DNA from: a virus
Taxonomy: Duplodnaviria > Heunggongvirae > Uroviricota > Caudoviricetes
DNA length: 40,186 nt
Virus record (IMG/VR): IMGVR_UViG_2728369554_000009
Location: 1 to 40,186 of that record
Strand: one strand, 5' to 3'
Below, piece after piece: positions 4,966 through 36,801 of the stretch (the first letter of the stretch is position 1; each line of letters opens with the position of its first letter). The notes beneath the pieces were generated by a model that saw only the letters and a list, made by a program, of their open reading frames with translations, had not been told where the DNA came from and searched no databases. The position numbers and the translations under genes were made by a program.

Positions 4966-4980
4966 TTACCGTTGAGGTAA
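4966..4980. promoter_or_regulatory. Operator-like palindrome TTACC-N5-GGTAA
   Basis: TTACCGTTGAGGTAA in early-left promoter region; extra half-site at 4953-4957 doubles as SD of 4794-4946 gene. Confidence 0.5.
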
Positions 4981-5099: not shown

Positions 5100-5684
5100 T
5101 TATTGTTTGTTTTTTTCGTTCTGGCTGATGACAAATTCAATGTAACTTTCGATCTTTGCCTTCTCTGTTTCGGGTAACAATGCGTAGCGCGAGCGGTCAT
5201 AGTTGATAGTCGCAGGGTCGTGCGGGTGAATCAGTAATTCATAGCCGTGACGCCCGAATGCGGATGCAACATTCTCCAGGGTGGAAATGGAAACGCTGAC
5301 CTCATTGTTTAACAGGCGGCTGATTGTCACCTGGGCGACGCCGGATGCGCGGTGAAGTTTTCCCTGTGTTGAAAGGTAGCGGCTTTCGCTCATCCAGCGT
5401 TCCAGGTTGTGAGCCGCCAGCTGACCAATGTCGCTTGGGCCGACAGGCTGAAAACCTTCCTGAGAAAGCGAGCGATCGATATCAAGCCAGTTACGGGGTT
5501 TATTGGCGGCAGCTTCAATTTTTCGCGCAACCTGGTCGCCGATAACCTTCTTGCCAAGAGCCCAGCGGTTTACCAGATTTGCCTGAGTTCCAAGTTTTTC
5601 TGCCATCCGCGTCTGAACACCATTGAATTCACGGTCGATCAAGTCGTTGAGATTTTGCCTGCGGACGTCCTGGATACTTTTCAT
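5100..5684 (-). CDS. Prophage repressor candidate with two HTH segments and no S24 peptidase domain
   Basis: 194 aa; HTH-like segments (TRMAEKLGTQANLVNRW and ASGVAQVTISRLLNNE); no GDSM/Ser-Lys autocleavage motif seen; divergent from Cro-like gene; intrinsic terminator just downstream; no SD upstream of ATG 5684. Confidence 0.65.
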   Translation of the reverse strand: MKSIQDVRRQNLNDLIDREFNGVQTRMAEKLGTQANLVNRWALGKKVIGDQVARKIEAAANKPRNWLDIDRSLSQEGFQPVGPSDIGQLAAHNLERWMSESRYLSTQGKLHRASGVAQVTISRLLNNEVSVSISTLENVASAFGRHGYELLIHPHDPATINYDRSRYALLPETEKAKIESYIEFVISQNEKNKQ

Positions 5685-5838: not shown

Positions 5839-6069
5839 ATGAGCGATAACGGACATTTCGATTTCAAAAAGCACTGGCTTGCACTTACTCCGGATGAGCG
5901 TGAAGCCTTCGCACAGGAAGCCGGAACGACGAGTCACTATATCCAGACTCACTTAACAGGTAAGCGAAAAATGCCAGGTAAAGTATTGATGAATGGGCTT
6001 TTTAAAGCCTGTAAAACAAGACAATGGCTGCGCTCAAAAGCAGAACTGGCATACTTCTTCTACTCATGA
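5839..6069 (+). CDS. Cro-like small HTH regulator
   Basis: 76 aa; EREAFAQEAGTTSHYIQTHLTGKRKMP HTH-like; divergent from repressor gene across a 154-bp region holding operator-like palindromes; followed by intrinsic terminator. Confidence 0.55.
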   Translation: MSDNGHFDFKKHWLALTPDEREAFAQEAGTTSHYIQTHLTGKRKMPGKVLMNGLFKACKTRQWLRSKAELAYFFYS

Positions 6070-29462: not shown

Positions 29463-29861
29463 TTAAGTGTATACCTCCTGCTGTTCAGTCGTGATTTTAC
29501 CCGGCAACACCTTTTTAGCTTTGCGCGGGTTAACCACATGGCCTTTAGTCCAGTACTCGTAGAGCACATCATCACACTCTTCCTGATACTGGATTACCTT
29601 ATCGCGGATTTCAGGGCGGACTTTGTTTGGACTGATGCTGTTCAACCAAGCTGCCAATTTTCGTAAAGCCATACAAATCATGGCTTGCACCCCTCCGGCA
29701 GAAGGTATGGTGATTTCCACCATACCCTTCGAGAAGCGTTGAGAAATCTTCTTATGTTGAGATTTCCAGTCTAGACCCATTCCCTCAACGATAGGTTTCA
29801 TTGGGGTGTACGGTTCGCCGTTGTGATTGACAACATAAAGTTCTACGCCGTGGAATGGCAC
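29463..29861 (-). CDS. Hypothetical phage protein (possibly regulatory)
   Basis: 132-aa protein-like ORF; start ambiguous (GTG 29861 or ATG 29801); divergent from antirepressor leader. Confidence 0.45.
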   Translation of the reverse strand: MPFHGVELYVVNHNGEPYTPMKPIVEGMGLDWKSQHKKISQRFSKGMVEITIPSAGGVQAMICMALRKLAAWLNSISPNKVRPEIRDKVIQYQEECDDVLYEYWTKGHVVNPRKAKKVLPGKITTEQQEVYT

Positions 29862-30008
29862 GTTGATAGTAGTGACAAGTTTGAAACATCGCTGGTTGTA
29901 AGCCAGCAGATGCTCGTTATTTTACATCGCGGTACAATTTCTCGCTGGTGGCTCTTTTATACACCTTAACCAAATATGGTTGATTTTGATATTTATCTTC
30001 GTCTATTA

Positions 30009-30023
30009 TTACCTTTTCGGTAA
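30009..30023. promoter_or_regulatory. Operator-like palindrome TTACC-N5-GGTAA at head of Bro-N antirepressor leader
   Basis: TTACCTTTTCGGTAA, followed by TTTACA-N17-CATAGT promoter-like hexamers. Confidence 0.5.
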
Positions 30024-30103
30024 ATTTACATCGCACTCCTCTTGTGCCATAGTAATCGGGCACTGGCAAAATCCAGTGCCGGGATTGGTCTCCCGGATTA
30101 CTA
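30009..30103. repeat. Left arm of perfect 95-bp inverted repeat (antirepressor leader)
   Basis: Reverse complement of 33103-33197 with no mismatches by eye; includes palindrome 30009-30023, -35-like TTTACA and two hairpins. Confidence 0.85.
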
Positions 30104-30290
30104 CAGAGGCACATATGCCGCATAAGCGGTTTTTTTATGTGTAAAGCGCACCTATTCTATGGTGGGCTGTGTGGGGGCACCGAAAGGTGCGCCGGGTTCC
30201 TTTGTAGCCGGTAAGACCAACTCTGCACAGTTCACCACCATCTGATTGGTCTCAGCGGTGGTGATTAACCTAACTACAAAGGTGATCGCC
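30024..30290 (+). ncRNA. Structured 5' leader / candidate sRNA upstream of Bro-N antirepressor gene
   Basis: Hairpins at 30059-30080, 30079-30096, terminator hairpin+T7 at 30118-30136, GAAA-tetraloop hairpin 30177-30190, 8-bp-stem hairpin 30232-30264; mirrored with compensatory changes in the AntA leader. Confidence 0.45.
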
Positions 30291-30983
30291 ATGAATACCA
30301 AACCTTCCATCTTTTCCTTTGAGTCATCCTGCCAGATCCGTATGTTCATGATTGACGGAGAACCTTGGTTTGTCACCAAAGATGTGTGCAATGCTTTGAA
30401 TATTGATGTTACACAAGCGAGAAAACTTGATAAAAAAGGCTGGAACAAAAAGGGGCTGTATTCAATACAGACCCCTGGTGGAATACAAGAACTATCCATC
30501 GTTTCAGAATCAGGTCTCTACATCCTTATTCTGCGTTGCAAAGAGGCAATGACTGAGGGAACGAGAGCATTCAGATTTCTTGAATGGGTTACAGGTGAGG
30601 TTCTTCCTCAGATCCGCCGCACCGGAAGTTACATTAAAAACTCGCTCCCGCAGGAAGAACGCATAAAGATGGTTGCCGACCAGGTAGCCAACGCCACGGC
30701 GTCAGCAGTAATGCAGGCGATGAAGATAGAGAACAAAACCTACAGTGCCCCGCTGAAGCCCGGCTACCGCAGCCTGATTCATTCTCCGTCTGGTGTTCTC
30801 GGCCTGACGGAGAACTCACTGCTGATGAATCTGCTGAACCAGTTACAGGAAGACGGGCACGATGTATCGGGCGCGGCGGCGGAGCTGACCACCATGTTCT
30901 GCTACATCGTCGGTGTGAGCAAATGCCTGCGTGATATCCAGACGCACGCGGAATACATCAACGACAAGGCAGGGTTCTTCTGA
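30291..30983 (+). CDS. Antirepressor-family protein: Bro-N domain fused to shared C-terminal (KilAC-like) domain
   Basis: N-terminus FSFESSCQIRMFMIDGEPWFVTKDVCNAL...ESGLYILILR fits Bro-N; C-terminal ~78 aa near-identical to C-terminus of 32255-32911 gene; ATG 30291 after AAAGGTGA. Confidence 0.7.
   Translation: MNTKPSIFSFESSCQIRMFMIDGEPWFVTKDVCNALNIDVTQARKLDKKGWNKKGLYSIQTPGGIQELSIVSESGLYILILRCKEAMTEGTRAFRFLEWVTGEVLPQIRRTGSYIKNSLPQEERIKMVADQVANATASAVMQAMKIENKTYSAPLKPGYRSLIHSPSGVLGLTENSLLMNLLNQLQEDGHDVSGAAAELTTMFCYIVGVSKCLRDIQTHAEYINDKAGFF
30741..30983. repeat. Left copy of ~243-bp inverted repeat encoding the shared antirepressor C-terminal domain
   Basis: Near-identical (a handful of substitutions) to reverse complement of 32255-32497. 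Confidence 0.85.
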
Positions 30984-31021
30984 CAGAACGGCGGCACAGG
31001 GACGTGCAAAACGAAACTAGC

Positions 31022-31033
31022 GTGACATGTCAC
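31022..31033. repeat. 12-bp perfect palindrome GTGACATGTCAC (copy 3)
   Basis: Between Bro-N antirepressor stop and terminator 31034-31058. Confidence 0.8.
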
Positions 31034-31058
31034 AGGCCGCTTTCGCGGCCTTGTTTTT
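31034..31058 (+). terminator. Intrinsic terminator after Bro-N antirepressor gene
   Basis: AGGCCGC-TTTC-GCGGCCT hairpin followed by TGTTTTT. Confidence 0.65.
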
Positions 31059-31218
31059 AACGAATGCCACCGCCACCCGGGCGGGAATCCGCAGAACGCC
31101 CACCGCAGCGGGAGCCGTCAGCAGCAGTGTCGCTGTCGTGCTGACAACGACCGGCAAAGGCCTGAGTTGAAGCTACCAGAGACAACAAAACGAACAGTGC
31201 AGCAAATGCTTTTTTCAT
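31057..31218 (-). CDS. Small predicted secreted peptide (tentative)
   Basis: MKKAFAALFVLLSLVASTQAFA signal-peptide-like N-terminus followed by ~31 aa with two Cys; weak SD; 3' end runs into the terminator hairpin. Confidence 0.3.
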   Translation of the reverse strand: MKKAFAALFVLLSLVASTQAFAGRCQHDSDTAADGSRCGGRSADSRPGGGGIR

Positions 31219-31299
31219 TGTGAAATTTCCATCTATAAACCACCTCAATGTGGCGTCAATGAGTGTAGCACTGACTTTTGTTTCGTCCATAAAAAACTA

Positions 31300-31812
31300 C
31301 TATGCAGGCTTTTTGGATTTGTACGAATAATCCCACGGATAAACATTTCTACTAAGTGGAGCTGTATTCGTTCGTTCATGAAATAATTTTGTGAAATTCA
31401 ATACGGAATCCATCCAAACTTTTGCGTTAGCTTTGGTGTGTGCGGGCGGGTCCCAATAAGCTAGTAAGGCTGCATCTCTTATTTCATTGACTGCATATAT
31501 GAGATATGCGTTACTGGTTGGTTTTGGCCTGTAATTTCCTTGTTCATCAATCAATCCATATGACCACTCATCCCAACACTGTTCAGTACATGAGTATGAA
31601 TATGATGCATATTCACCAATATTGACATGAACCTTTCTGAGATGGAAGCCTAATACTTCCTCTGGTCTTTCAAAAAGAGTATCTTTTCCCAGATCAGGAT
31701 GATGACCATGACGCCAGTGTTGTTTAAAAGCATCTTTTAGCGAAATCAGAAAGTCATCAGTTTTAAACTCACCAGTAGGTATAACCTTCCCGCTATACTC
31801 ACTCAAAAACAT
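31300..31812 (-). CDS. YafO-like putative toxin (AT-rich moron)
   Basis: 170 aa; PDLGKDTLFERPEEV...AYLIYAVNEIRDAALLAYWDPPAH parallels my recollection of E. coli YafO (PDTFGRDALYDD...AHLVYCQGAFDEQAWLLIAILKPEPH); SD GGAAGAGG; overlaps upstream gene by 14 nt. Confidence 0.45.
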   Translation of the reverse strand: MFLSEYSGKVIPTGEFKTDDFLISLKDAFKQHWRHGHHPDLGKDTLFERPEEVLGFHLRKVHVNIGEYASYSYSCTEQCWDEWSYGLIDEQGNYRPKPTSNAYLIYAVNEIRDAALLAYWDPPAHTKANAKVWMDSVLNFTKLFHERTNTAPLSRNVYPWDYSYKSKKPA

Positions 31813-32125
31813 CGAATTCCTCTTCCTTCATATGCGTTTCTAATGAGTTAAGCTGGCGGAAAGATATCTCTTTTGATTCTGCAGATGAGAGCTTTTTTAT
31901 CCGCTTTATATTCTTTGTGATAGGAATAGACATTGTATGCACATCAGCGGATGCTCTTGGCTTTGTGCTGATAAAAATATGGCGCAATGCCGCATTTTCA
32001 CTATTGAACGAGCCAATAGCTGATTTACGTGCTACAACCTTACCAGTAAAAATACGACTCTTGCTACGCTTTGCATGAGTTCCGCTTCTTACCGGACCTC
32101 TCATCACGAATCCAAGTTTTGTCAT
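31799..32125 (-). CDS. Basic hypothetical protein, upstream partner of YafO-like gene
   Basis: 108 aa, Lys/Arg-rich with acidic C-terminus EEEFDVFE; SD GGAGAT; operator-like palindrome 32168-32182 upstream; not recognisably a known antitoxin. Confidence 0.4.
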   Translation of the reverse strand: MTKLGFVMRGPVRSGTHAKRSKSRIFTGKVVARKSAIGSFNSENAALRHIFISTKPRASADVHTMSIPITKNIKRIKKLSSAESKEISFRQLNSLETHMKEEEFDVFE

Positions 32126-32167
32126 CTTTAATCTCCGGTAAGTTACAGGTATAAAATAAAAACAGGT

Positions 32168-32182
32168 TTACCTTTAAGGTAA
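32168..32182. promoter_or_regulatory. Operator-like palindrome TTACC-N5-GGTAA
   Basis: TTACCTTTAAGGTAA ~45 bp upstream of 32125 gene start. Confidence 0.5.
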
Positions 32183-32254
32183 TAGTACGCTATTCACCCC
32201 CGGTCTGCAATCTGTACAGAATTATTTAAAGGCACATCCCTGTGCCACCGCCCG

Positions 32255-32497
32255 TCAGAAGAACCCTGCCTTGTCGTTGATGTACTCCGCGTGGGTCTGG
32301 ATATCACGCAGGCATTTGCTCACACCGACGATGTAGCAGAACATGGTGGTCAGCTCCGCCGCCGCGCCCGATACGTCGTGCCCGTCGTCCTGTAACTGGT
32401 TCAGCAGATTCATCAGCAGTGAGTTCTCCGTCAGGCCGAGAACACCAGACGGCGAATGAATCAGGCTGCGGTAGCCGGGCTTCAGTGGGGCGCTGTA
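32255..32497. repeat. Right copy of ~243-bp inverted repeat encoding the shared antirepressor C-terminal domain
   Basis: Near-identical to reverse complement of 30741-30983. Confidence 0.85.
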
Positions 32498-32911
32498 TTC
32501 TTTTTTGTCTTCCAGCTTGATCGCCTCCATTATGGCGGGCATGAAGCCTGACAAGACCTTCTCCACTTTTGTTTCTTGTTGTCTTAAACGTTTCTCGCAT
32601 TCAATGAAGTAGCGTCGCACCTGGCGACCTTTTTCGTTACGCTCGACCATCGCCAGCTCTTTGGCTGTATCAAGGGTGAGGTGGTACTCTTTGCGGTTGT
32701 GGCCGCCTCTACCAGATGTTTGCTTTCCCAAATTGGAAAGCAAAATATAGTCTTGATTTTCAATGAATTCGTATTCTGATATGCGATTTGTAATCCATGC
32801 TGCAAACACCTTTTTAACACCTAAAAAAGCGTGCAGATCGCGGGCATTACAAAGTAGGGCTGTTTCGTTAGATATAGTGCCGTTGAATACGGGGATGAGT
32901 TGAGCGTTCAT
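32255..32911 (-). CDS. Antirepressor-family protein: AntA-like N-terminal domain fused to shared C-terminal (KilAC-like) domain
   Basis: N-terminus [28 protein letters not shown]...[22 protein letters not shown] fits AntA; C-terminal ~78 aa near-identical to the Bro-N gene. Confidence 0.7.
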
Positions 32912-33182
32912 GATGGCGTCTCCACTTAGCGAATTACATCACCACCGCTGAGACCAATCAGATGGTGGTGAACTGAACGGAGTTGGTCTTACCGGCCTAA
33001 GTGGTACCGGCGTCCTTTCGGACCCCCATTCAGCCCACCATAATTCTGGCATGACTGTGCTATACGCATAAAAAAACCACGTCTGGCGTGGTATGCGCCA
33101 CTTAGTAATCCGGGAGACCAATCCCGGCACTGGATTTTGCCAGTGCCCGATTACTATGGCACAAGAGGAGTGCGATGTAAAT
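32912..33182 (-). ncRNA. Structured 5' leader / candidate sRNA upstream of AntA antirepressor gene
   Basis: Mirror of the Bro-N leader: same hairpins, terminator stem CCACG-CCAGA-CGTGG+T7 (33076-33090), GTCC-GAAA-GGAC (33012-33023), conserved hairpin 32939-32971. Confidence 0.45.
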
Positions 33183-33197
33183 TTACCGAAAAGGTAA
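33103..33197. repeat. Right arm of perfect 95-bp inverted repeat (antirepressor leader)
   Basis: Reverse complement of 30009-30103. Confidence 0.85.
33183..33197. promoter_or_regulatory. Operator-like palindrome TTACC-N5-GGTAA at head of AntA antirepressor leader
   Basis: TTACCGAAAAGGTAA; mirror of 30009-30023. Confidence 0.5.
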
Positions 33198-33228
33198 ATA
33201 TAAGCACTCCACTTGGTAATTGCAAACC

Positions 33229-33486
33229 TTATCTGGTTTGTTTTCGTAATTGTTCGGCACAATAGTCGAGATGTGTTTGCAGATCCTGCATAGACATCTG
33301 TGAGCTGGTGACGTAGTTAATCAGTGCAGTCAGTTCGGCAAGTGGGCCATCGACATTAAATCCATCCTTATCGAGATCCCGGAGTAATTTCATCAAGTGC
33401 GATCCCTCCACCAGTGACCTGACGCCTCCCGGCGTGTGAATCCTTTCGGTAAATCCGTCTTCCAGTGGATAGTGATACTGCTGCAT
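33229..33486 (-). CDS. Stand-alone paralogue of the antirepressor C-terminal domain
   Basis: ATG 33486 after GGAGAA; MQQYHYPLEDGFTERIHTPGGVRSLVEGSHLMKLLRDL...QTHLDY aligns at ~40% identity by eye with the shared C-terminal domain of the two antirepressor genes. Confidence 0.5.
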   Translation of the reverse strand: MQQYHYPLEDGFTERIHTPGGVRSLVEGSHLMKLLRDLDKDGFNVDGPLAELTALINYVTSSQMSMQDLQTHLDYCAEQLRKQTR

Positions 33487-33681: not shown

Positions 33682-36600
33682 ATGACGGTCTCAACCGAAG
33701 TTGACCACAACGAATACACCGGTAACGGCGTTACGACATCGTTTCCGTATACTTTTCGAATTTTCAGAAAATCAGACCTGGTTGTTCAGGTGTCTGACCT
33801 GAACGGAAACGTAACAGAATTGGTTCTGGATACCGGTTATACGGTAACTGGGGCGGGCACTTATAGTGGCGGTTCTGTGGTTCTTCCGTCTCCGCTTGCT
33901 ACTGGATGGCGAATTACGATAGATCGTGTGCTTGATGTAGTGCAGGAGACAGACCTTCGCAATCAGGGAAAATTTTTCCCCGAAGTGCATGAAGATGCCT
34001 TTGACTACCTGACGATGCTGATCCAGCAATGTTTTGGGTGGTTCAGACGTGCATTGATGAAACCATCTTTGCTTGCAAAATATTACGATGCAAAGCAAAA
34101 CAAAATTTCTAACCTTGCAGATCCATCATTTGAGCAGGACGCTGTAAATAATCGCTCAATGCGTAATTATGTCGATGCTGCAATCGCCGGGGTTGTTGGT
34201 GGTTTTGGTTGGTTTATTCAGTATGGTTCTGGGGCTGTGTACCGAACGTTCCAGGATAAAATGCGTGATGCTATTAGCCCCAAAGATTTTGGAGCTGTTG
34301 GTGATGGTATAAATGACGATTCCACTGCAATAAGCGCGTGCCTTGAAGCCTCATCTCCAGGTTATAAAATTGACGGATTAGGGCTTACTTTTAAAGTATC
34401 AACTCTTCCGGATGTCAGTCGATTTAAAAATGCTCGTTTTTTATTTGAGAGAATACCGGGCCAGCCTCTTTTTTATGCTTCTGAAGATTTTATCCAGGGA
34501 GAGTTATTTAAAATTACAGATACACCGTGGTACAACGCCTGGACGCAGGATAAAACGTTTGTATATGACAATGTCATCTATGCGCCTTTTATGGCTGGAG
34601 ACCGCCATGGTGTAAATAACCTCCATGTTGCATGGGTTCGCTCAGGAGATGACGGGAAGACCTGGACAACGCCGGAATGGCTTACAGATTTACATGAAAA
34701 CTATCCCACAGTTAACTATCACTGCATGAGTATGGGGGTTGTCAGAAATCGCCTTTTTGCTGTAATTGAGACGCGGACCGTGAGCGGAAATAAACTGCAG
34801 GTTGCAGAGTTGTGGGATCGCCCAATGAGTCGCAGCCTTCGCGTTTATGGTGGTATAACGAAAGCAGCAAATCAGCAAGTCGCTTATATTCGCATTACTG
34901 ATCACGGATTATTTGCTGGTGATTTTGTCAACTTCTCAAACTCTGGTGTTACAGGTGTTACCGGGAATATGACGGTGACTACTGTTATTGATAAAAATAC
35001 TTTTACAGTTACGACGCAAAATACCCAGGATGTGGATCAGAATAACGAGGGTAGATACTGGAGTTTTGGTACATCATTTCACTCGTCACCATGGAGAAAA
35101 ACCAGTCTTGGAACTATTCCTTCTTTTGTTGACGGAAGCACTCCTGTTACTGAGATTCACAGTTTTGCGACGATTAGCGATAACAGTTTTGCTGTTGGCT
35201 ACCATAATGGTGATATTGGTCCACGCGAGCTTGGGATACTCTATTTCTCTGATGCTTTCGGTTCTCCTGGTAGCTTTATTCGCAGACGCATACCTGCAGA
35301 ATATGAGGCGAATGCATCTGAGCCATGTGTAAAATATTATGATGGCATTCTGTATCTGACGACCAGGGGGACATTAAGTACTCAACCCGGTAGTTCATTG
35401 CACAGAAGCTCTGATTTAGGTACATCATGGAATTCTCTTCGCTTCCCAAATAATGTTCATCACTCAAACCTTCCTTTTGCCAAAGTTGGCGATGAGCTGA
35501 TTATTTTTGGCAGTGAGCGCGCATTTGGTGAGTGGGAAGGAGGAGAACCTGATAACCGTTATGCAGGAAATTATCCAAGAACATTTATGACCAGAGTTAA
35601 CGTCAATGAGTGGAGTCTGGATAATGTAGAGTGGGTTAATGTTACTGATCAGATTTATCAGGGCGGAATAGTTAACTCTGCGGTTGGTGTTGGTTCAGTT
35701 TGTATCAAAGACAACTGGCTGTACTACATTTTCGGTGGGGAAGACTTTCTAAACCCATGGAGCATAGGGGATAACAACAGAAAATATCCTTATGTTCACG
35801 ATGGTCACCCGGCTGATTTATATTGTTTCAGGGTGAAAATCAAACAGGAAGAATTTGTTTCAAGGGATTTTGTCTACGGAGCCACTCCTAACAGAACGCT
35901 TCCTACTTTTATGTCGACGTCAGGCGTGAGGACGGTTCCTGTACCCGTTGATTTCACAGATGATGTTGCCGTCCAGTCACTGACTGTCCATGCAGGTACA
36001 TCAGGACAAGTTCGCGCGGAAGTCAAACTTGAGGGTAATTACGCCATTATTGCGAAGAAAGTACCGTCTGATGATGTTACCGCTCAGAGATTAATCGTTA
36101 GCGGCGGTGAAACAACGTCTTCAGCAGATGGTGCAATGATAACGTTGCATGGTTCCGGAAGCAGTACTCCACGTCGCGCGGTATATAACGCACTCGAACA
36201 TCTTTTTGAGAACGGAGATGTTAAACCTTATCTTGATAATGTAAATGCTCTTGGTGGTCCGGGAAACAGGTTCTCGACAGTTTATCTTGGCTCCAATCCT
36301 GTGGTTACCAGTGACGGAACATTAAAGACAGAGCCGGTCTCTCCTGACGAAGCATTGCTGGATGCCTGGGGTGACGTCAGGTATATCGCTTATAAATGGC
36401 TGAACGCTGTCGCTATAAAGGGGGAAGAAGGGGCGAGGATACATCATGGTGTAATCGCGCAGCAACTTCGTGATGTTCTTATTTCTCACGGACTCATGGA
36501 AGAAGAAAGCACAACATGCCGCTATGCCTTTCTTTGCTATGACGATTATCCCGCAGTATATGATGACGTCATTACTGGCCAAAGGGAAATGCCGCTGACT

Positions 36601-36801
36601 GATAATGAAGGGAGCATCATTGTTGATGAGGATGATAATCCAGTGATGGTAATGGAAGACATCATTGAGCGCGTTGAAATAACGCCAGCAGGATCTAGAT
36701 GGGGGGTCAGACCTGATCTCTTATTCTATATCGAGGCAGCATGGCAGCGCAGAGAAATGGATAAGATAAAAGAGCGGATTCAGTCTCTGGAAGAACGTTA
36801 A
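33682..36801 (+). CDS. Tailspike / tail fibre with beta-helix depolymerase-like domain and C-terminal intramolecular chaperone (peptidase S74-type) domain
   Basis: 1039 aa; DFGAVGDGINDDSTAI pectate-lyase-like beta-helix signature; C-terminal ...ARIHHGVIAQQLRDVL... matches the GVIAQE-type chaperone domain of endosialidase-like fibres. Confidence 0.8.
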   Translation: MTVSTEVDHNEYTGNGVTTSFPYTFRIFRKSDLVVQVSDLNGNVTELVLDTGYTVTGAGTYSGGSVVLPSPLATGWRITIDRVLDVVQETDLRNQGKFFPEVHEDAFDYLTMLIQQCFGWFRRALMKPSLLAKYYDAKQNKISNLADPSFEQDAVNNRSMRNYVDAAIAGVVGGFGWFIQYGSGAVYRTFQDKMRDAISPKDFGAVGDGINDDSTAISACLEASSPGYKIDGLGLTFKVSTLPDVSRFKNARFLFERIPGQPLFYASEDFIQGELFKITDTPWYNAWTQDKTFVYDNVIYAPFMAGDRHGVNNLHVAWVRSGDDGKTWTTPEWLTDLHENYPTVNYHCMSMGVVRNRLFAVIETRTVSGNKLQVAELWDRPMSRSLRVYGGITKAANQQVAYIRITDHGLFAGDFVNFSNSGVTGVTGNMTVTTVIDKNTFTVTTQNTQDVDQNNEGRYWSFGTSFHSSPWRKTSLGTIPSFVDGSTPVTEIHSFATISDNSFAVGYHNGDIGPRELGILYFSDAFGSPGSFIRRRIPAEYEANASEPCVKYYDGILYLTTRGTLSTQPGSSLHRSSDLGTSWNSLRFPNNVHHSNLPFAKVGDELIIFGSERAFGEWEGGEPDNRYAGNYPRTFMTRVNVNEWSLDNVEWVNVTDQIYQGGIVNSAVGVGSVCIKDNWLYYIFGGEDFLNPWSIGDNNRKYPYVHDGHPADLYCFRVKIKQEEFVSRDFVYGATPNRTLPTFMSTSGVRTVPVPVDFTDDVAVQSLTVHAGTSGQVRAEVKLEGNYAIIAKKVPSDDVTAQRLIVSGGETTSSADGAMITLHGSGSSTPRRAVYNALEHLFENGDVKPYLDNVNALGGPGNRFSTVYLGSNPVVTSDGTLKTEPVSPDEALLDAWGDVRYIAYKWLNAVAIKGEEGARIHHGVIAQQLRDVLISHGLMEEESTTCRYAFLCYDDYPAVYDDVITGQREMPLTDNEGSIIVDEDDNPVMVMEDIIERVEITPAGSRWGVRPDLLFYIEAAWQRREMDKIKERIQSLEER

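Follow-up and report, generated by a model that had tools for sequence, protein, structure and literature searches.

The stretch of DNA considered here, hereafter the window (40,186 nucleotides (nt) of IMG/VR virus record IMGVR_UViG_2728369554_000009), is a phiV10/epsilon15-like (Uetakevirus) Escherichia coli prophage, and it carries two convergent antirepressor genes, at 30291-30983 on the plus strand and at 32255-32911 on the minus strand, each with a leader of ~230 nt upstream. The left gene encodes a Bro-N protein (Pfam PF02498, 1.8e-13; PHROG 130 'anti-repressor Ant', 3.5e-51) and the right gene an AntA protein (Pfam PF08346, 4.2e-26; PHROG 377, 2.8e-66). Their N-terminal domains are unrelated and their C-terminal domain is common (phrog_450), the gene tails (30728-30984 and 32254-32510) forming a 257-nt inverted repeat that is 95% identical. 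Scanning the whole window against Rfam at curated thresholds returned exactly four matches, two per leader, with E-values of 1e-9 to 7e-14. In each leader an IsrK-like small RNA (sRNA; RF01394, gathering score 50) at 30060-30136 (+, 74.7 bits) or 33070-33146 (–, 67.7 bits) is followed by a C4 antisense RNA (RF01695, gathering score 45) at 30155-30242 (+, 78.6 bits) or 32961-33045 (–, 61.2 bits), both C4 matches spanning the full-length model. The same order, isrK and then C4, is found before anrP in Gifsy-1 and before icd-ant in P1.

Because of these matches, and because the same layout is present in P1 immI and in the isrK–STnc1160–anrP locus of Gifsy-1, the leader is not an unknown RNA: both leaders are structured RNAs of the known P1-type system in which C4 antisense RNA and the IsrK sRNA silence antirepressor genes. 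We put the probability that each leader constitutes an entire P1-type immI control region, standing directly before an antirepressor gene, at roughly 85%. An earlier note on this DNA had taken the leaders for an undescribed RNA system, which is wrong, as each leader scores, in both its halves, above the gathering thresholds of families already modelled in Rfam. That note had also named a match to a family of unrelated function as grounds for abandoning the idea; the match is there and its function is related (antirepressor control), so the biology stands and the novelty falls. The c4 RNA was described in 1990 and IsrK in 2008 and 2016, the C4 and c4-a1b1 motifs were described in 2010 (PMC2864571), and c4 and isrK RNAs upstream of a BRO-N gene have already been reported in APSE phages (PMC7313666). 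As textbook-type antisense immunity control, already in Rfam and already seen beside BRO-N, the leaders have little discovery value; the novelty left, one prophage with two modules of unlike specificity, is modest and falls within a kind already known. Their value lies partly in annotation, since Uetakevirus (phiV10/epsilon15-like) records give these regions only as "terminator" or "hypothetical". Within this group phiV10, phiv142-3 and TL-2011b have a single isrK + C4 leader at the equivalent site, before an antirepressor gene adjoining the tail-fibre gene. The comparison also joins two literatures, as the "orf45/STnc1160" segment of Gifsy-1 matches C4 and IsrK carries the a1/b1 sites of P1.

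The heads of the two leaders form an inverted repeat of 100 nt (30004-30103 vs 33103-33202) with 98% identity. Within it the copies are identical in pairwise alignment over 30009-30103, in keeping with the perfect repeat (30009-30103 / 33103-33197) that the earlier note had described. This stretch opens with the palindrome TTACC-N5-GGTAA (TTACCTTTTCGGTAA, 30009-30023, on the left; TTACCGAAAAGGTAA, 33183-33197, on the right), which lies in each copy one base upstream of the –35 hexamer of a leader promoter, TTTACA-17-(TG)CATAGT (30025-30053, +; 33153-33181, –; promoter scan), with a predicted start at ~30060 on the left. Position 1 of the isrK model falls at 30060, the promoter ending 7 nt ahead of it. 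Leader lineages whose upstream sequence is unrelated still have –35/–10-like hexamers equally far away, which supports a transcription start at this model position.

Across the window the palindrome has 15 occurrences where 0.8 would be expected, starting at 4966, 5028, 5740, 5788, 6125, 8094, 8156, 10539, 10557, 13804, 29423, 30009, 32168, 33183 and 33563. Most probably it serves as the prophage repressor's operator, to judge from the two copies that lie between the gene for a helix-turn-helix repressor of 194 amino acids (5100-5684, –) and a cro-like gene (5839-6069, +), and the 15 sites look like a dispersed repressor operator set, as for C1 in P1. Among homologous leaders the palindrome is kept at –51 to –37 in 63 of 121, with conserved arms and a variable spacer. 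By eye, no LexA-type CTGT-N8-ACAG box was seen in the promoter region; LexA control, as in the Gifsy antirepressors, was rejected, the palindrome of the promoter region being TTACC-N5-GGTAA instead. Separately, a 15-nt near-copy (GTTATTTTACATCGC, 29916-29930) of the –35 region (GTAAATTTACATCGC, 30020-30034) is found on the same strand, 104 bp further upstream, and may be a recombination remnant or chance.

In the left IsrK-like element (fold z = –2.8) hairpin 1 (30060-30079, +) and hairpin 2 (30080-30095, +) precede an intrinsic terminator at 30117-30136 (+); the terminator of the right copy is at 33092-33070 (–). The terminator scan thus recovered the two different hairpin+T7 terminators that the earlier note had reported, and its palindrome, its TTTACA hexamer and its two 5′ hairpins are borne out as well, the latter (GCACUGG/CCAGUGC and CGGGA/UCCCG) being the minimum-free-energy fold itself. 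Two 5′ hairpins and then a Rho-independent terminator behind a sigma-70-type promoter, both called from the sequence, are what defines isrK, and a promoter-proximal IsrK-like sRNA of 77 nt would likely end at the internal terminator. Such an sRNA of ~80 nt had been one of the possibilities raised in the earlier note; it is implied by the isrK match, and experiments have demonstrated it for the Gifsy-1 homologue, the short form of which is 77 nt long (PMC4825925). Binding of isrK by Hfq, and its short and long forms in vivo, are known from Gifsy-1 only (PMC4825925). Across the leader elements, fold z-scores against shuffled sequence range from –2.8 to –5.5. On the family models themselves we observe that Rfam isrK and c4-a1b1 cover one element, yet isrK lies outside the C4 clan. 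Gifsy-1 (locus L123 in our comparison, 1482-1680) matches both models, and P1 (L122, 3218-3423) matches c4-a1b1, with isrK at 35 bits.

The C4 RNAs (85-88 nt; z = –4.5 on the left and –5.5 on the right) consist of a 17-bp closing stem, a GAAA hairpin (hairpin 1), a hairpin 2 with the b′ site in its loop and a 3′ bulge with the a′ site, and in both copies the minimum-free-energy fold is the model structure. The GAAA hairpins GCACC-GAAA-GGUGC and GUCC-GAAA-GGAC are present, not as free-standing elements but as hairpin 1 inside C4. The closing stem is tRNA-like and followed by CCACCA in the Rfam alignment, and by analogy with P1 the C4 would be excised by RNase P as a stable RNA.

Downstream, the a2 site is held in the loop of an 8-bp hairpin (UCACCACC...GGUGGUGA, 30232-30264, +, z = –3.8; 32939-32971, –, z = –3.5). 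This hairpin exists as first proposed but is not independent, as the C4 closing stem uses its 5′ arm as 3′ strand. Because six alignment columns are shared, the two structures are partly exclusive, and the CACCACC strand is contested between the a2 hairpin and the closing stem (30225-30241; 32962-32978). The same overlap is found in P1, and the competition may amount to a conserved switch, with a C4 competent for processing as one state and display of a2 in its loop as the other.

Site names (a1, b1, a′, b′, a2, b2) follow P1 usage. The motif GATTGGTCTC does occur twice per leader as first noticed, at 30083-30092 and 30244-30253 on the left and at 33123-33114 and 32959-32950 on the right, and this repeated motif is the a1/a2 target pair of C4. 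Site a1 (UUGGUCU; 30085-30091 and 33121-33115) is held by the loop of IsrK hairpin 2, and a2, of the same sequence (30246-30252 and 32957-32951), by that of the 8-bp hairpin; both are complementary, in both copies, to a′ (AGACCAA) in the 3′ bulge of C4 (30214-30220; 32989-32983). In the left copy the b′ loop of C4 hairpin 2 (CCUUUGUAG, 30199-30207) complements b1 (CUACAGAGG, 30101-30109), with one G-U pair, and b2 (CUACAAAGG, 30274-30282, +) over 9 nt. The right b′ loop (CCACUUAG, 33004-32997) complements CUAAGUGG at both b1 (33105-33098) and b2 (32922-32929, –). The b2 site lies 8-9 nt upstream of the ATG in both copies and overlaps the Shine-Dalgarno sequence, on the left 9 nt before ATG 30291 and on the right (GUGGAG) before ATG 32911. 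Each leader thus has two unpaired C4 regions that are each complementary to one upstream and one downstream site, the arrangement that characterises the P1 type. This core logic, in which GATTGGTCTC and the divergent 8-9-mers are the antisense targets of the two unpaired C4 regions, is what the earlier note missed.

Most differences between the copies are coordinated b1/b′/b2 triplets, helix-preserving changes in C4, or lie in the terminator. The left C4 b′ duplex has –15.5 kcal/mol on its own b2 and –10.0 kcal/mol, with a large internal loop, on the right b2; the right C4 b′ duplex has –13.3 kcal/mol on its own b2 and –5.9 kcal/mol on the left b2. Complementarity was determined by ungapped complement search of the unpaired C4 regions and energies on short-segment duplexes; folding C4 against the whole target was dropped, as all-against-all duplexes were uninformative.

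A pattern scan of viral contigs found 118 loci, which gave 95 unique leaders; target sites were analysed in the 85 leader sequences in which the simple pattern located C4, and helices in an alignment of 82 sequences, with pair counts set against slide and shuffle controls. The 85 leaders contain 33 distinct b′ loops, each complemented over 7-12 nt by a b1 and a b2 of its own. On average the longest match of b′ measures 8.8 at its own b1 and 9.1 at its own b2, compared with 5.0 and 6.3 in non-cognate leaders. In all b′ classes examined b2 lies directly before the start codon. The a′ site falls into four classes (GACCAA, CGCCAA, UUCCAA, UGCCAA), each matched at a1 and a2.

Over the 82 leaders 96.9% of the cells in the IsrK and C4 helices are paired, a share that falls to 37-45% if the partners are shifted by 1-3 columns; 20 helix pairs are changed on both sides, and none of 500 shuffles reaches the observed values. 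In the 17-bp C4 stem pairing reaches 99.9% and 9 pairs have both sides changed, as do all 5 pairs of hairpin 1; in the a2 hairpin both-side changes occur in 5 of the 8 outer pairs and in 3 of the 4 inner ones. By these slide and shuffle controls the covariation signal is large and consistent, and the claim of a functional structured RNA with structure-preserving covariation is borne out well beyond the two copies on which it had been based.

Among the closest known counterparts is immI of P1 and P7, with its promoters P51a and P51b, the latter constitutive in P1. In the P1 GenBank annotation the order is operator Oc4, promoters P2c4 and P1c4, a1, b1, c4, a2, b2, icd and ant, and C4 hairpin 2 of the P1 sequence has b′ in its loop, with a′ placed in the 3′ bulge. 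The window shares with P1/P7 immI the order operator, promoter, a1, b1, terminator-like hairpin, C4, a2 hairpin, b2 and antirepressor; the C4 fold is alike and both pass RF01695. The C1 operator Oc4 lies just upstream of the c4 promoters, and in the window the palindrome likewise precedes the leader promoter. Whereas P1 has icd between c4 and ant, the window has no open reading frame (ORF) between C4 and the antirepressor start, and its b2, unlike that of P1 with icd, covers the Shine-Dalgarno of the antirepressor itself; icd is a feature of the P1 operon and not of the C4 RNA family. The recognition sequences also differ (in P1, a = UUGACAG and b = GUUAGUGA), as do the antirepressors (Ant1/Ant2 in P1, Bro-N and AntA proteins in the window), and P1 is a plasmid prophage whereas the window is an integrated Uetakevirus prophage with two modules per genome.

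In the Gifsy-1 isrK-orf45(STnc1160)-anrP locus isrK, c4-a1b1 and C4 stand before the antirepressor in the same order as in the window, the 77-nt short form ends at the same terminator, and the a1-a′ pairing was tested by compensatory mutation. Among the 82 aligned leaders an orf45-type ORF is found only in Gifsy-1, the a and b specificities differ, and no antQ gene adjoins the window locus, unlike in Gifsy-1. The Gifsy-1 paper does not use the name C4 for the downstream RNA, and the link to C4 comes via Rfam. In APSE phages of Hamiltonella the same two Rfam families occur together, with a′/b′ matching the region upstream of a BRO-N gene (PMC7313666). The APSE-1/2 leaders are ~70% identical to the left leader of the window, but they form a single module in a different host clade with different recognition sequences.

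Two further systems bear comparison. The P4 CI RNA with seqA/seqC follows a like logic, in that a processed leader RNA pairs with sites up- and downstream of itself and this pairing keeps lytic/anti-immunity genes off (PMC4825925). However, P4 CI acts by premature transcription termination whereas in the window the Shine-Dalgarno is the conserved target. The sar RNA of P22 immI is, like C4, a small antisense RNA blocking antirepressor translation, but it is cis-encoded from the opposite strand and its fold is unrelated to C4. TL-2011b has sar-arc-ant alongside its isrK/C4 module.

In the mechanism we propose, family membership, anatomy, complementarities and covariation come from this analysis, and processing, translational repression and activation by IsrK from experiments on homologues. 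The sigma-70 promoter, next to an upstream palindrome that is probably the prophage repressor operator, would fire, and most transcripts would stop at the intrinsic terminator to give the IsrK-like sRNA, which would display a1 in a hairpin loop and b1 in a single-stranded spacer. Read-through transcripts would contain C4, which on the P1 analogy would be released by RNase P and accumulate. C4 would then pair through a′ with the loop-displayed a2 and subsequently through b′ with b2, masking the Shine-Dalgarno, and the resulting block of antirepressor translation would keep the lysogen repressed and immune. Because a1/b1 mimic a2/b2, IsrK could bind and titrate C4 in trans, lifting the block.

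The homologues behave in this manner. [quoted passage not shown] In Gifsy-1 the short IsrK is 77 nt, the ~80-nt STnc1160 is processed from the read-through transcript, and IsrK supplied in trans raises anrP translation >100-fold (PMC4825925). With L123:1495 as +1, the compensatory pairs G28-C162 and G31-C159 reported for Gifsy-1 (PMC4825925) are a1-a′ pairs, and the derepressing "orf45" mutations C159U and C162U (PMC4825925) fall in a′ of C4.

Several points weigh against C4 silencing relieved by IsrK as the full account of the window leaders. Processing, termination efficiency and repression in this prophage are extrapolated from homologues. In P1, where the c4 precursor is cut by RNase P, icd coupling and Rho-dependent termination act as well; these icd-dependent steps (translational coupling, Rho-dependent termination) cannot apply literally here, because the window leaders have no icd or upstream ORF. 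The c4-a1b1 model (RF03163) matches at 30047-30099 and 33159-33107 with 39.9 bits (E = 9e-8) and so falls short of its gathering score of 46.7, which P1 (51.0 bits) and Gifsy-1 (48.1 bits) pass; the bases concerned are also covered by the higher-scoring isrK match. A promoter-like scan of the whole region is at chance, with 9 found against 7.8 expected. Finally, the a1 mutations G28A and G31A in cis raised basal anrP translation in Gifsy-1 (PMC4825925), and therefore pairing of a1/b1 with C4 in cis must also matter and a decoy-only model is incomplete.

Of the alternatives, the one that survives best has the leader acting mainly in cis, as a terminator/antiterminator attenuator in which the frequency of read-through sets antirepressor expression and C4 or another factor modulates termination via b1, as the P4 CI RNA does. 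An intrinsic terminator does lie between promoter and gene in both copies, with the end of b1 only 7 nt from the terminator stem, and the Gifsy-1 authors raised the idea of an attenuator for STnc1160, likening the locus to P4 CI/seqA/seqC; their transcription fusions rose 8-fold with IsrK in trans (PMC4825925). This rise is, however, far exceeded by the translational effect in the same system (>100-fold), and constitutive STnc1160 failed to prevent the IsrK-mediated growth arrest, which was even more pronounced. Across the leaders the strongest conserved signal is the pairing of b′ with the Shine-Dalgarno (b2) in all 33 classes, which termination control does not need, and no conserved antiterminator pairing in competition with the stem of the terminator was found. 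We consider it unlikely that attenuation is the main mode of control; as an added layer it is possible, because b1 abuts the terminator. The earlier note's idea of a switch gating antirepressor expression thus holds for the gating, while a purely cis terminator/antiterminator switch is not what the covariation points to.

Much less probable still is that the published Gifsy-1 model carries over to the window. In that model IsrK acts in trans to open an inactive messenger RNA (mRNA) structure, A, leading to translation of orf45, which overlaps the start codon of the antirepressor with its stop codon and is translationally coupled to it, and the C4-like segment is chiefly coding or structural mRNA rather than a trans-acting repressor. 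It is backed by direct genetics and in vitro probing in Gifsy-1 (PMC4825925), and the window leaders have the same isrK + C4 order. Yet only 1 of 82 leaders, that of Gifsy-1 itself, has an upstream ORF that begins with ATG and terminates at the antirepressor start, and neither window copy has one; the segment is a match to the C4 covariance model and shows RNA covariation; and orf45 is, according to its own paper, conserved as nucleotides and not as protein (PMC4825925). Coupling to an upstream ORF, be it orf45 or icd, was rejected for the window, since neither leader has a coupled upstream ORF.

That the mirror similarity is the scar of a recent inverted duplication or recombination, with compensatory changes arising by chance, would fit the 98-100% identity of the first 100 bp and the 95% identity of the gene 3′ ends, as expected after recent recombination, but a meaningless duplication is effectively refuted by the Rfam matches and the covariation, as each copy alone exceeds the curated thresholds of two families, the diverged parts keep every helix and the b′/b1/b2 complementarity, and both also hold over 82 diverse leaders.

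With the leaders read as C4/IsrK control regions, the two modules of the window have a/a′ in common and differ in b/b′, and on this sequence difference full repression by each C4 should be confined to its own antirepressor. Two convergent modules are present in seven prophages (the window and loci L019, L087 and L124-L127); all seven combine unlike b′ loops, and some of them combine unlike a′ as well; a divergent pair (L060) has b′ in common and a different a′. The convergent types are Bro-N/CCUUUGUAG, AntA/CCACUUAG, ORF6N/CCUACUAG and Bro-N/CCUUUUAG, of which Bro-N/CCUUUGUAG and AntA/CCACUUAG are seen on either side. In E. coli MS 196-1 (L124) the segment from Bro-N to YafO is inverted relative to the tail gene. 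In this small sample the pattern points to modular exchange via conserved leader heads and gene tails, and the 100-bp leader heads and 257-bp gene tails may serve as recombination handles for module swap or for inversion of the 3-kb cassette between prophages.

More tentatively, the two modules could form a dual-channel anti-immunity circuit of a kind not yet described, a reading we regard as possible with the odds leaning against it. In such a circuit unlike b specificities would be combined with a common a site and repressor operator, and each unit would gate an antirepressor with a different N-terminal and the same C-terminal domain; the unlike b specificities in one genome would resemble those of P1 and P7 as separate phages. 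The contacts that set specificity are short, 7 nt at the a site and 8-9 nt at the b site, and the 33 b-site classes together with the two-module prophages are a natural test set for how two such contacts set antisense specificity. For the phage group itself, overexpression of a Uetakevirus Bro-N protein has been reported to cause a shift from lysogenic to lytic growth (PMC9782041).

The neighbourhood contains further genes of related kind. A gene of 85 amino acids at 33229-33486 (–), an epsilon15 gp19 homologue, is a stand-alone phrog_450 domain and thus a third copy of it. Left of the modules lies a truncated P22-type antirepressor gene (29463-29861, –; 132 amino acids) with only the P22_AR_N N-terminal domain, which relatives annotate as incomplete. 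The sar model (RF00262) has no match in the window and none beside this gene, and the same model finds sar in TL-2011b; P22-type sar control of the truncated ant was rejected on this ground.

The space between the modules holds a gene for a YafO-like toxin together with two small genes. The YafO-like gene (31300-31812, –) has a weak Pfam match (7e-4), and its RefSeq relatives are annotated as YafO-family toxin. Upstream of it and overlapping it is a gene of 108 amino acids (31799-32125, –; phrog_5933) with one of the 15 TTACC-N5-GGTAA palindromes 43 nt before it, and the two may form a toxin-antitoxin pair between the antirepressor modules. A strong GC hairpin terminator (31034-31051) lies between the convergent units and is adjoined by an ORF of 54 amino acids (31057-31221, –) with a signal-peptide-like N-terminus (MKKAFAALFVLLSLVASTQA...), which relatives carry as a 162-bp hypothetical gene. 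Beside the cassette is the tail-fibre gene (33682-36801, +; 1039 amino acids), whose counterpart beside the same cassette in MS 196-1 is annotated as an endosialidase beta-propeller (RefSeq); from this annotation we propose that the K1 capsule may be the target of this Uetakevirus-type prophage.

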